Assembly: GCA_964016885.1 (NCBI GenBank)
Contig: OZ024749.1
Location: forward strand, 34,534,001-34,598,000
Direction of reading: 5' to 3'
Length of the DNA: 64,000 nt
Source: Eledone cirrhosa
Lineage: Eukaryota
Part shown: piece after piece, positions 30,001 to 36,000 of the stretch
How positions within the stretch are numbered: position 1 is the stretch's first letter
How the letters are laid out: the number at the start of each line of letters is the position of its first letter
The notes under the pieces: generated by a model
Seen by the model: only the letters and a program-made list of their open reading frames with translations
The model's database searches: none
What the model was told of the DNA's origin: nothing
Position numbers and translations under genes: made by a program

Positions 30001-33000
30001 GAATGCCCAGCCACTTGCATGTTAATTTCATGAGCTGGCTGTTGTGTTGATCAAACAACTGTAAGCCTAATTGTTGGAATTAATAGCAGCCCAACACAAC
30101 ACTCACATGTACATACACCTTTAGGAGTGTTGTTATTTTAGGATGCTTTCTACTTTAGTATGGAAAATTGGAAAGAGTTGTTAGAACAGAGGACGAAATG
30201 CCTTGTGGTATTTGTTCCAACTCCCTGCACTCTGGGTTCAAATCCCTTCAGTATCAAATTTCACTTCTCATCTTTTCAGGGTCAATAAATTAAAGAACCA
30301 ATTCAGATTAGTGGATTGGCAGAATCTTTAAAGCATCAGATGAGAAGCTCTGATGTATTTGTTCAAATTCTTTGTGTTTTGAGTTCATTATACCATTATG
30401 GCCTATTTTGAGGATAGACTTAATCCATCATCTGGTTTAACATAACCACCTAGGCCTTGAGTGTCTTTAGCAGAGTTCACTCTTTTCTAAGCATTTGGGT
30501 CAGGTATCTCTAATTTGAGGATACTTTCATCCCTTTCTCTCAGCAATCTTGGAAGCCCCTAAGGAACAAAAATTCATGGGATTGGTTCCCTGACTATGAT
30601 ATATAAACGTGCAGATTGATTCTCTGACTATGATATATAAACGTGCAGTTGATGTTATGAACTGATGCGATTATAACATTGAAAACCTAAACTTTATTCT
30701 GTTGTTTTATTTGTAGGATCTTGCCAAAGCCATGGCAATCCAGTGTGTTGTGTTCAACTGTTCTGACCAGTTGGATTATATGGCAATGGGAAAATTTCTC
30801 AAAGGATTAGCCAGGTTTGTTATTGAAATAGTTCTATTTCTTACATATCTTTTAGTTTTCTGTAACCATTCAGTTAGAATATACCAAATCACATCACATG
30901 TTAAATCAAATTAACATGTAAAATTTTAATTAATATGCAAAGAATAATTAATAACTAATTCAAAGAATAATTAATAACTAATTCAAAGAGAAACTATTAT
31001 TATATTATAGACTTGGAATATAACTGTTGAAAAAGGCTAAATAATTAACGTTTTGGATAAGTGACCTATCCAATGGGCTTTTGCTTAACTGGTTTCCACA
31101 TACTAATTAGCTTTAACATCCTATACTGCATGAAACCATATTAGTAAGGTATTCTTGAAAAGTACAAAACAACACTATAACTACATCACATTAAAAATTG
31201 ATGTTTTTACTCTAGTACTACAAATATTAACAACAATTTGTCCACTAGTAAAGATACTCTAAATATTTGAATTAGCTAACCTGTTTTTAAGTATTTTCTG
31301 CTAAATAATTACAGGATGTTAAGAGATAAAACTACAAACTTTAACAATAATCTGTTCTATAGTAAAGATACTATAAACATTTGAACTAGCTAATCAATTT
31401 TTAGATATTTTCTGCTAAATCATTACAGGTTGTTAAGAGATAATACTATAAACTTTAACAACGGTCTGTTTACTAGTGAAGATACTATAAACATTTGAAT
31501 TAACAAAGCTGTTTTTAGATATTTTCAACTAAATCATTACTGAATGTTAAAAGTTAATATTCATAGAAAATACTTTGAAATTATCCAACAGTTGGTTTGA
31601 AAATATGAGGATTTGAAATGTAAGTGTTGGCTGAAATTGTACAATGTCTTAGTAAACTCATTGCAGTACTGGATCTTGGGCATGTTTTGATGAGTTCAAC
31701 CGTATTGATATTGAAGTGCTCTCAGTTGTAGCGCACCAGATATCTTCTTTACAATCACAACAAAGACGAAGGGTGAGACAATTTGTCAATTTAGTCTGTT
31801 CACTGAACCTGACTTCTGTGTTTACTCACTGTTTTCTTTCACACTTGCTTTATTCCACATGGTAATTGAAGCACTTATATCATGCATTTTATTATCTCAA
31901 ATGGATTCACTTATTGCTTTTATATTTCACCTCATAAATATTATATTTCATTATGTTGTCTGTATATATTTCATTCCACATATCTTATATTTTAACTTGC
32001 TGTCTCTATATTTTATCTCATAAGTTTATTTCAACTTTCTATCTGTATATATTTCACATCACAAGTTTTATATTTCGACTTTCTATCAGTATATATTTCA
32101 CTTCACAAGTTTTATATTTTAACTTGCTATCTCTGTTTTTCAATTCCGTTTTTGTACATCACATCGGGTTTATATAAAATATCACAAAGAAACAAACAAA
32201 AAAAATCATCTTTTCAATTTCTAGTCTGGCATATTTAGTTTGGTTAGGGTTTTACAACTTGATTGGTGTTTCATGTCAAAGACTACTAGTAGAGTTGGGT
32301 AGGTGTGTTTATGGTAAAAAGTAGCATTAAAATGGTTGTCTTGAGTAAATAACAACCTTCTGCATTCTATATCCTTTTTATTTTGGAAGTACTATTCTCT
32401 AAGGTGGATTGCCTTCACTGTAACTCAAGGAATGCATCACATCTTATACATTTCAAGGTAATTTCTTTGTATGTTGGTAGGTTTCTTTGAATCTTCATAT
32501 TTATAGACGAGTTGCACTCACTGCAGTCACAATAATATCCAGTCATTTGATGTAAGTATTAGGAAGATGATGGACTGATGAAGACAGCTCTGTTGCCATG
32601 TTGGTGTGTGGTTAAAACATGAAGGGAATGTGTTTTCATTAACTTTTTTGTTATCATATTTCTAATGAAAGACACTGCCTATGACTGACAAATGATTTTG
32701 AAAATAGTCCAGAATTTGGAGGGGTTTAGTAATATAACTAACTTCTCATTATTAATCTAGTCTTTGGCACATAGATTCTATTTATCCCATGTAGGCATGA
32801 ATAGGAGAAATTTGTAATATAATACCCTCCACATAACTAAGTTCTTCATAATTACTTTAATAAGATTCAATGTTTTGAGAACTGCTCCTCCCTCTGTTTT
32901 CAATTCATGTCTAGAATCTGACATAATTATCTTGGCTTCTAATGAAGTATTTGGTGCTATTTTGTTACATTGAGCAGTAGGAGGGTTTGATAAATTTCCT

Positions 33001-36000
33001 TTAAAGTCCCCTTCTTGTGAACCTCTTCTGGTCATTCCAACCTTGTTTGTTTTTTTATACTTTCAGTCTTTTACCATTTCCAGCTCACAGGTTCTGGCCA
33101 TACTGGGGCATTACTATTATATATTATAATTCTTGATAGCATCAATTGTCTTCCCAAACAAAGCTGCATATTCATCACCAATGAATATATGTGTGCATGT
33201 GCACACAGGCATGCACATGTACACACATATACATATGAGAGAGAAAGAGGCTAAAGTTTTAGTTATTAGTTAGAAGGAAAGACGAGAAAACTCTGCTGTT
33301 ATTGGAAAGTTGGACAACATGTCTGATGTACAGAAAGGGAGTCTGTAGCAATTCTATACAGTTTACTCAGTGTGTACAATGGATGCACACAGTCTGACTA
33401 ACTGATGACATAAACTTAATGTATGGCAAATTTACAAAAGTACTTAATAGTAAGAGTAAATGGGAACTGGTTTCCTTCAGATGTCTGGAAATCTTAGTAG
33501 TTGATAGCATTTGTGACTTAGGTGAGCTACTTATTATAATGTGGAAAGTGATATATGTAAGAAGGCTAAAACAATGCAAAATGGACAGTAAGATGAAGGC
33601 AATGAAAACGTTAGTTACCTGGTAATCTTTATTTTTTTTTTTTTTCATCCTAATATTTTGGGTCTTAAAATTCCCTTCATCAGAGTATAGGGAACTTTCA
33701 GAGAAAAATGTTCTGATCTATTCGCTTTGAAATTAGATTTAAATTGTAACTACTTATTATATTGTTATATTGTTAGGGCTAATGGAAATCAGAATAGTTC
33801 AGTGGATAAATGGAGTATCACTAAGGGAGAGGAAGACAAACAATGAATTGCAGAAGGTAATGGGAATAGAGCCAGTGATAAATGTTGTGAAGAGACGGTT
33901 TGGTCATGAGTTGTAGAAGGATGAAAGTGACTGGGTGATAGGAATAGAATTAGTGATAAATATTTTGAGGAGAACTGGAATGAGATGGTTAGGTCATGTG
34001 TTTGAGAAGGGCTGGAAGTGACTGGGTGAGAAGAGTGATGAAAATAAATGTGGAAGGACATAACGGAAGAGGAAAACCAAGAAATATATGGCTAAAGATG
34101 ATGTAGGAGGAAATGAAAGCCATGATTTCGGTGAGGGAGACATGCAGACGATGTGACAAAATGGAGACGGTTGTGATGGGGACCAACCCCCTGCAAGGCT
34201 AACCTCTGCTTTGGCAGAGAAGATGGCCTTAAAATGTTTGTTGTTATTGTTGTTTATTGTTAGCACTATATAGTGGTGTTGTATTTCCTGTCCAGTTCCG
34301 GAGCTTGGGCATGCTTTGATGAGTTCAACCGTATAGATATTGAAGTGCTCTCAGTTGTAGCCATGCAACTTACTACCATTGTACAGGCTCTTATCAAACA
34401 GGTAGGACAAGGTTCTATTATTATTACATTTCTTACTCTTTTATCCCAATAATCCTTTGCTATGTTATTGTTAAATGGATATATAGATATAGTCGTTCAA
34501 GTCATTCAATACATATGCTATGACATCTCTCTCTATCTGTCTCTCTCTCCCTCTCTTTGTGTATATATACTGTATTTATATATGTATATATATATAATAT
34601 GCTATGTATTATATATTATATTATATATGGAAGTCCAAGCATTTTAAGGCTAATTTCATGATACATGCACATTTATTATAGACATTCACACTCACATAAT
34701 AATAATATAGATATATACTCATGTGCGTGTGTTATAAAAAAGATGCTGACAGATTTTTTTTAACCATAGAGAAGGGCACTTCCATTCAAAATGACAGGCA
34801 AAACCATTGATAAATATTTTTACAATTTCTTTGCACTTTTCTTGACACTTTCTTTACACCCTTTTCTCACTTTCTTTACACTGTTTTACACATTTTTTAC
34901 ACTTCAATCTCAGCCAAAAAGCTGAGACCAATAATTTGTAAATGTGCTAATGCATGCTGTCTGCCAAAAATAATGACTTACAGTGGTATATAAGCTCATG
35001 TAATAATGATTCTATGTGATTGACACTTTTATATATATATATATATATATATATATATATACAAACATGGCTTTAGTGGTGTGTATGTAATGCAATTTTT
35101 ACATATTTCAAACTAAATGTAAATAATTAGCAACAGTTGTATATATTTGGCATAAATCATGTATATTTAATGTGCTAATTGTGTAACTTTAACCCACTAG
35201 CTGTGTATAATATACACATGAGGTGTGTATATTGTTGTTGTTGTTGTGTATATATAACATTAGATAAATATATTTGGGCAGTGAATTGCCAGGGTCGTTT
35301 GAACGTTGAATAGAATGCTTCATGGAATTTTTTCTAGCTCTGTGCTCTGAGTTCAAATCTTGGTGAAGTCAACTTTGCCCTTCATCTTTTTGAGGTCGAT
35401 AAAAAAAAAATACCAGTGGGTTTGATTCTTCCTCTATATCTCTTTCTCATTTCCTCTCTATTTCTCTTCCTCCTTCACTGGAAGAAATCGTCTGTGTTCA
35501 GACCTGGAGAAGGGATGAACTCTGCCTGGTCTAAAGTGCCCAAGAAACACCATATGTCACTACGGCACCTCCATGACTCCACCAGGATTTACATGTCCAT
35601 ACATACATAGAAATATATTTGACATGATATATTTAATACCTGTTTTCTGTCTTCTTTCTCATTCATGTTTCACTGATAGTTTATGATGTTGTTGTTGTTT
35701 ATACCTGTTGTTTTCACTGTAAACACTTTTGTTGTGTATCCAGCTAGATCGGTTCTTTTTTGAAGGAGCAGAAATTGCTTTGAAGCCCTCTTGTGCTGTG
35801 TTTATTACTATGAACCCTGGCTATGCTGGACGGACAGAATTACCTGATAACTTGAAGGTAATGTCAATTTACATTCATATTTATATCTTCTGTGCCATAT
35901 ATATTTATCATCATCGTTTAATGTCTGCTTTCCCTGCTAGTCAACAATGGACAGGTCTACATAGACCAAGTCAGAACTGAAGTGAAGCTACTGACCTCCC

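Follow-up and report, generated by a model that had tools for sequence, protein, structure and literature searches.

Two alternative Walker-B exons in octopod DNAH1: a likely old splice switch in an axonemal dynein heavy chain

Introduction

Can a single axonemal dynein heavy chain gene make two motors by exchanging the exon that carries its main catalytic motif? The question is raised by a 64,000-nucleotide (nt) stretch of Eledone cirrhosa DNA (GenBank assembly GCA_964016885.1, contig OZ024749.1, forward-strand positions 34,534,001 to 34,598,000; hereafter the window), in which an initial annotation proposed a mutually exclusive exon pair, 20a and 20b, at the AAA1 Walker-B site of the DNAH1 gene. 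Gene duplication is the usual route by which axonemal dyneins diversify; in this gene, a single inner-arm motor seems to have been diversified by swapping the exon of its main catalytic motif. We judge it quite probable that a readable message of octopod DNAH1 takes exactly one of the two exons, and that this choice is a likely ancient spiralian splice switch that would give two motors.

Results

The two exons had been described as 106 nt each, with cag/GT boundaries and running from phase 2 to phase 0, and both were recovered on the forward strand with the same peptides, 20a at window positions 31667-31772 and 20b at 34296-34401, on either side of a 2,523-nt intron (31773-34295). Each has a CAG acceptor and a GT donor (GTGAGA for 20a, GTAGGA for 20b) and encodes strand beta-3, Walker B and helix 3, the end of the helix being polar and basic in 20a and hydrophobic in 20b, which is of a type marked by Met-23. 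They lie between constitutive exon 19 (30717-30814; 98 nt, ending in phase 2), whose 32 residues are all identical to those of Octopus sinensis DNAH1, and constitutive exon 21 (35744-35857; 114 nt), which carries the pre-sensor-I hairpin and the sensor-I Asn; the AAA1 Walker A exon, recognised in the window sequence by its GPAGTGKT motif, is at 29555-29645. The exon numbers 19 to 21 are window-relative labels, exon 19 counting as the 18th coding exon in the window.

That a full-length protein needs exactly one of the two exons, as the initial annotation had claimed, was borne out by translating messages with both, either and neither. The splices 19+20a+21 and 19+20b+21 are each open over 318 nt. 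With both exons included, 20b is read as FRSLGML followed by a stop, i.e., seven codons into the exon, and exon 19 joined directly to exon 21 meets an immediate TAG at 35745-35747. Eight combinations were translated, and a candidate alternative acceptor 4 nt inside exon 21 rescued none of the four in which it was used. Since 106 is not divisible by three, joint inclusion or joint skipping leads to a premature stop, and messages with both exons or neither would presumably be removed by nonsense-mediated decay.

As homologous, adjacent exons that match in length, phase and splice-site type, 20a and 20b have the features by which tandem-duplicated, mutually exclusive exons are recognised. They are identical at 73 of 106 nt (33 differences) and their flanking sequences are unrelated. 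No third copy emerged when the window was scanned with a sensitive profile, and among 16 genome-wide Walker-B matches only 20a and 20b stand in tandem on the same strand. Two dynein Walker-B exons, L013 and L014 (G000:C19:6802388 and 6714155), have identical translations in opposite orientation 88 kb apart, and represent either a recent inverted duplication or an assembly duplicate.

The identification as an axonemal DNAH1 gained support from similarity to O. sinensis DNAH1 and to the solved DNAH1. The window holds part of the gene, its exons tiling residues ~600-2540 of the O. sinensis DNAH1-like protein XP_036367019.1 with 86.5% amino acid identity over 1,612 aligned residues (O. bimaculoides stands closer to O. 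sinensis than the window does, at ~96%); XP_036367019.1 in turn scored 6082 bits against the solved DNAH1, 4378 against Chlamydomonas DHC2 and 3421 against DNAH7. The AAA1 Walker A, the Walker B, the pre-sensor-I motif with its Glu and the sensor-I Asn are intact. By these similarities the gene is the octopod DNAH1, or DHC8, the heavy chain of inner-arm dynein d; DNAH1 is assigned to class 8 as the ortholog of Chlamydomonas DHC2, dynein d (PMC5100056).

Comparison with other molluscs, which the initial annotation had recommended, found alternative versions of the same exon in bivalves and abalone, and also in an annelid and in rotifers. Both versions occur among the listed isoforms of eight molluscs (Haliotis rufescens, three Mytilus, Ruditapes, Mercenaria, Mizuhopecten and Argopecten), one being a canonical exon and the other a Met-23 exon like 20b. 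RefSeq isoform variants of this kind rest on transcript alignments. When equal-length isoform pairs with fewer than 40 differences were compared, at least five mollusc pairs differed by 6-8 residues, all of them within the 35-residue exon, and a pair of isoforms from the rotifer Brachionus calyciflorus differed by 10 residues, again all within the exon. Gene models of the annelid Paralvinella and the rotifer Brachionus plicatilis join two copies in tandem. Among metagenome loci (80 kept of 554; most short or not DNAH1), two held more than one copy: L021 has three versions of 106 nt each, framed by one and the same pair of flanking exons, and L046 has the second and third. The DNAH1 of both loci is rotifer-like, with Brachionus proteins at ranks 1-3 for L046 and 2-4 for L021. 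The third version (L021:1751-1910, L046:324-486) is split into 34 and 72 nt by a short inner intron, 54 nt long in L021; it has Cys changes before Walker B and forms a two-exon cassette alternating with single exons. The best 150 of 2,231 representatives at the 50% level added further Met-23 exons and no new exon of the 20a type.

A second version was not seen among the matches listed (up to 15 members per cluster, so that a one-version result is no proof of absence; number of matches in brackets) for the molluscs O. sinensis (2), O. vulgaris (2), Haliotis cracherodii (2), Patella caerulea (4), Mya (7), Babylonia (2), Biomphalaria glabrata (4) and the Elysia cluster (5), or for the nemertean Lineus (2), Macrostomum (4), Schistosoma (10), starfish (9), the hemichordate Ptychodera (5), the cnidarian Clytia (3) and the sponge Dysidea (2); thus none of the listed proteins of deuterostomes, a cnidarian, a sponge and flatworms carried an alternative. 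The splice switch is likely to be old because alternative versions of the same exon are found in clams, mussels, abalone, a worm and rotifers, and the simplest reading is that the exon cluster dates at least to the mollusc-annelid ancestor and possibly to the spiralian ancestor. The common ancestor of the lineages with the swapped exon is more than 500 million years old. Met-23, which marks the other version, is also present in exons of canonical type from Haliotis, Mya and the nemertean Tubulanus (P0314, P0195 and P0194), where further conversion events may have introduced it. The gastropods Babylonia, Nucella and Biomphalaria have second, diverged DNAH1-like proteins (P0235, P0299 and P0301) and belong to lineages with one exon version seen; in these animals the splice switch may have given way to duplication of the gene.

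Within the cephalopods, 20b was present in eight of nine proteins spanning the site: two each from O. sinensis and O. vulgaris, one from Argonauta and three Logan products that cluster with the decapodiform Sepia pharaonis. The window 20b peptide matches O. sinensis at 35 of 35 residues, Argonauta at 34 and the decapodiform protein P0124 at 33. One of the 20b-bearing Logan products is 4,202 amino acids long on a 12,917-nt contig, a size that only a spliced transcript would explain, so that 20b is expressed in decapodiforms. The ninth protein, O. bimaculoides XP_052830659.1 from RefSeq, carries a 20a-type exon identical to that of the window at 31 of 35 residues, with four conservative changes; its length, frame, both splice sites, Thr-1, Ser-3 and nine of 13 tail residues are kept. 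For each of the Octopus species listed, a single exon version is seen. Under neutral simulation, the chance that 15 non-converted positions and both splice sites would remain this intact fell from 0.026 to 0.003 as the neutral distance rose from 0.2 to 0.3 substitutions per site; because the protein has diverged by 15% (85% gene-wide identity between the window and O. bimaculoides), a neutral distance of at least 0.2 is a reasonable assumption, not a measurement. Conservation in O. bimaculoides, the mollusc isoforms and this simulation all favour the view of the initial annotation that the pair does not include a dead duplicate, and the pair is real, conserved and very likely functional.

Divergence between the two exons is very uneven. 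Over the 5' part the copies agree at 61/66 nt, falling to 12/40 over the 3' part (Fisher p = 2e-11). Among the shared residues of codons 1-22 the synonymous codons are identical in 16 of 19; the corresponding counts are 176 of 423 for 13 dynein exons that are their paralogs in this genome (p = 2e-4) and 21 of 50 when the L021 copies are compared with one another (p = 0.002). Near-identity at synonymous sites in copies that are themselves old indicates conversion of the Walker-B part; thus the catalytic 5' part looks to have been homogenised by gene conversion in the octopod line. From the codon table and these statistics the putative tract covers codons 4-22 of 20a (31677-31732), in which 54 of 56 nt are the same as in its counterpart in 20b (34306-34361). 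The 20a tail scores nearest to canonical DNAH1 exons and farther from 20b, and the canonical exon of bivalves has diverged far less than the first exon of the octopod pair.

Both alternative acceptors are among the weakest of the gene, only two of the 37 constitutive acceptors scoring below either of them, and the 20a donor is also weak while that of 20b is ordinary; this is as expected for regulated exons. Incompatibility of U2 and U12 splice sites was considered as the basis of exclusive choice and rejected, since none of the donors (GTTTGT, GTGAGA and GTAGGA) conforms to the U12 consensus. Steric hindrance was likewise rejected: it applies where donor and branch point are less than about 50 nt apart (PMC5740500), the intron here is 2,523 nt, and an AG lies 22 nt upstream of the 20b acceptor. 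Ungapped helices within the introns or between exon and intron, such as a docking-site/selector mechanism of the Dscam type would use, were sought in nine region pairs of the window sequence and did not exceed the best of eight shuffles. The best of them, pairing 34224-34240 with 34636-34652 (17 bp, -21.5 kcal/mol, against -22.2 for the best shuffle), flanks 20b and could loop that exon out.

Codon comparison and a fold model of the 20a-type domain, built from an alignment, agreed with the claim that the two versions have the same catalytic residues and a different following helix. The model places a strand at residues 106-109, a helix at 117-135 and a hairpin at 140-149, that is, beta-3 with Walker B, helix 3, the hairpin and the sensor-I strand in that order, with a local predicted local distance difference test (pLDDT) score of 84-93 over residues 121-150. 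It was used for local secondary structure only; a model made without the alignment reached a pLDDT of 33. By the aligned model the variable codons 23-35 form the C-terminal half of helix 3, in which the two exons retain the hydrophobic positions 25 and 28 and differ at 23, 26, 27 and 29-35.

Separate contigs assembled from DNA run X1 span 31497-32665 (depth 15) and 34225-34522 (depth 13.6) with zero differences from the window; runs X1-X3 come from a single sample, possibly the source of the assembly, and among the contigs listed none spans both exons.

Elsewhere in the window, 44023-44191 is a 92% copy of 43122-43292 (the last 34 codons of an AAA2 exon and its donor); it has no credible acceptor, scoring below all 37 constitutive ones, and looks like a dead fragment. 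Positions 49521-49841 are a 90% copy of 19932-20252, and take in a repeat together with the acceptor and the opening few bases belonging to the exon at 20245. A long intronic minisatellite with a 30-nt unit (13004-16306) has an open frame on both strands, and a further open frame at 51748-52131 resembles what we take to be the end of a long interspersed nuclear element (LINE) reverse transcriptase.

Discussion

Several observations weigh against an old switch in which both exons serve. Trees on the 35 columns of the exon were unresolved and gave no support to a single origin across Spiralia. Exon 20b is the version found in all three Logan decapodiform proteins at the site, in the two O. sinensis isoforms and in the two O. 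vulgaris models, and the only other 20a is in a predicted, gappy RefSeq model, with no 20a-like protein of 71-2000 amino acids among the best 120 of 506 matches. Exon 20a has other residues in place of Ala-3 and Ala-31, neither of which varies in any of 115 DNAH1 representatives, and its last 13 codons show four differences from O. bimaculoides, compared with six in 192 for the other AAA1 exons. At 0.1 substitutions per site, a neutral distance that like the others was assumed, the simulated chance of such preservation rises to 0.22. The fold model is globally poor (mean pLDDT 65, root-mean-square deviation ~12 Å to solved dyneins), and no contacts were obtained.

The leading rival to continued use of both exons is an old switch in which 20a is decaying in octopods and 20b is effectively constitutive, conversion having repaired the 5' part of 20a and the 3' part being still unhit. 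The predominance of 20b in cephalopod proteins, the weak 20a splice sites, the two missing alanines, the fast-evolving tail and the indication of conversion would all fit. We nevertheless regard decay as unlikely, because the length, frame, splice sites, Thr-1, Ser-3 and most of the tail of 20a are intact relative to O. bimaculoides and its changes are conservative, a state of preservation improbable at neutral distances of 0.2 or more, and a helix is still predicted for 20a. Less probable again, and in our estimate rather improbable, is a recent, independent duplication of 20b with fast 3' divergence, unrelated to the pairs of other animals. The 5' synonymous identity of 16/19 is what a recent copy would have, and the tree cannot tie copies together across phyla; such an origin is disfavoured because it leaves the random-level 3' end and the unrelated flanks unexplained, and it also sits badly with the affinity of the 20a tail to canonical exons rather than to 20b and with the Met-23 common to 20b and the second versions of bivalves, abalone and the annelid. 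That one exon was assembled twice, as an assembly or haplotype artefact, has next to no probability: no listed contig bridges the exons and the runs may derive from the assembly's own sample, but each exon has its own unique flanks at equal depth, 33 differences separate them and both types occur in other Octopus species, so that on present evidence the pair is no assembly artefact.

A more specific history, in which the mollusc-annelid-rotifer ancestor had a three-exon cluster, is conceivable and decidedly less probable than the old switch as such. Its three classes would be a first (Ser-3, Ser-26 and a basic residue 33), a canonical and a last (Met-23 or Asn-14); coleoids would have lost the canonical exon, the exon of nearly all other animals, and would build dynein d only from a pair of specialised exons, serving sperm and body cilia respectively. 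Exon 20a and most of the rotifer first-class copies share Ser-3, Ser-26, a basic residue 33 and the loss of Ala-31. Ser-26 and Arg/Lys-33 occur jointly in five of five first-class copies and in none of the 115 representatives, Ser-3 in four of five and again in none of the 115, and no representative has lost Ala-31, figures to be read with the fact that the first-class group was picked after the sequences had been seen. A tree uniting the first-class copies was not rejected (approximately unbiased test, p-AU 0.78). Copies come in the same order in the window, in Paralvinella, in B. plicatilis and in L021; for the copy of B. calyciflorus the position was assumed. Weighing against three classes are the affinity of the 20a tail, which is nearest to the canonical class, and the lack of a first-class exon in the listed bivalve and gastropod models.

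Under an ancient two-way switch, splicing factors acting on the two weak acceptors would set the choice; coleoids would use 20b by default, and 20a as a minor alternative restricted to certain cell types. Gene conversion would hold the Walker-B two-thirds of the copies close to a common sequence, and selection would preserve the difference between their final 13 codons. One gene would then supply two motors of the inner-arm dynein d kind that share their catalytic residues and differ at the end of AAA1 helix 3. The AAA1 pre-sensor-I hairpin is reported to cover the H2-H3 cleft near AAA6, and its Glu to be conserved in single-headed inner-arm dyneins and oriented toward AAA6 (PMC4047620). Because the variable half of helix 3 would lie under this hairpin, the switch may alter the packing beneath it near AAA6 and so tune the coupling of AAA1 to ring movement, as beat force or rate, leaving the chemistry of AAA1 hydrolysis (PMC4879348) unchanged. 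The likeliest division of use would be between sperm flagella and somatic cilia, an assignment to which we give somewhat less than even weight; it is plausible because loss of mouse DNAH1 affects both, impairing sperm and slowing cilia (PMC9482856).

Natural variant pairs only a few helix 3 residues apart would test the role of the helix and hairpin in the dynein cycle, and bear on how a single DNAH1 serves both sperm tails and body cilia. The pair is also a clean candidate for alternative exons whose catalytic portion is preserved by conversion as their tails grow apart.

No published description of the DNAH1 Walker-B exon pair was found in the literature searched, some splicing supplements, including one file of Kollmar 2016, lying outside that search. 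Sex-specific DNAH1 isoforms are reported in a sea cucumber (PubMed 36371882). In the searched part of a pearl-oyster supplement, which excludes its ovary-versus-testis splicing tables S6-S8, DNAH1 appears in an expression table only; an oyster supplement gave no match; and a Manila clam table lists 'Dynein Heavy Chain 1', a label that may mean another dynein class, as differentially expressed and not as differentially spliced. The exon variants themselves are already in public databases as unremarked isoform annotation: the RefSeq and GenBank DNAH1 isoforms of Haliotis rufescens (X3/X4), Argopecten (X1/X2), Mizuhopecten (X6/X7) and Mercenaria (X10/X11) exchange the same exon at equal length, as 20a and 20b would.

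Among known systems, the cytoplasmic dynein DHC1 of Schistosoma mansoni has a mutually exclusive exon (Pillmann et al. 2011, PMC3228551), and like the present pair it involves tandem, equally long homologous exons in a spiralian dynein heavy chain gene. It differs in being a cytoplasmic class-1 chain, whereas the exchange here is in axonemal DNAH1 (class 8) at the AAA1 Walker B; the sections of that paper covered do not name DNAH1. According to Kollmar 2016, alternative splice forms of the motor domain exist for some dynein genes, and these may include the 20a/20b site; the sections covered name DHC1 as the only example and give neither a position nor a taxon range nor a function for DHC8/DNAH1. 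The muscle myosin heavy chain genes belong to a different motor family, one in which tissue use and kinetics are known. Their clusters in arthropods and lophotrochozoans nevertheless resemble the one proposed for DNAH1, in that they are described as old clusters of mutually exclusive motor-domain exons, with gains and losses, that fine-tune mechanochemistry (PMC3228551, PMC5740500).

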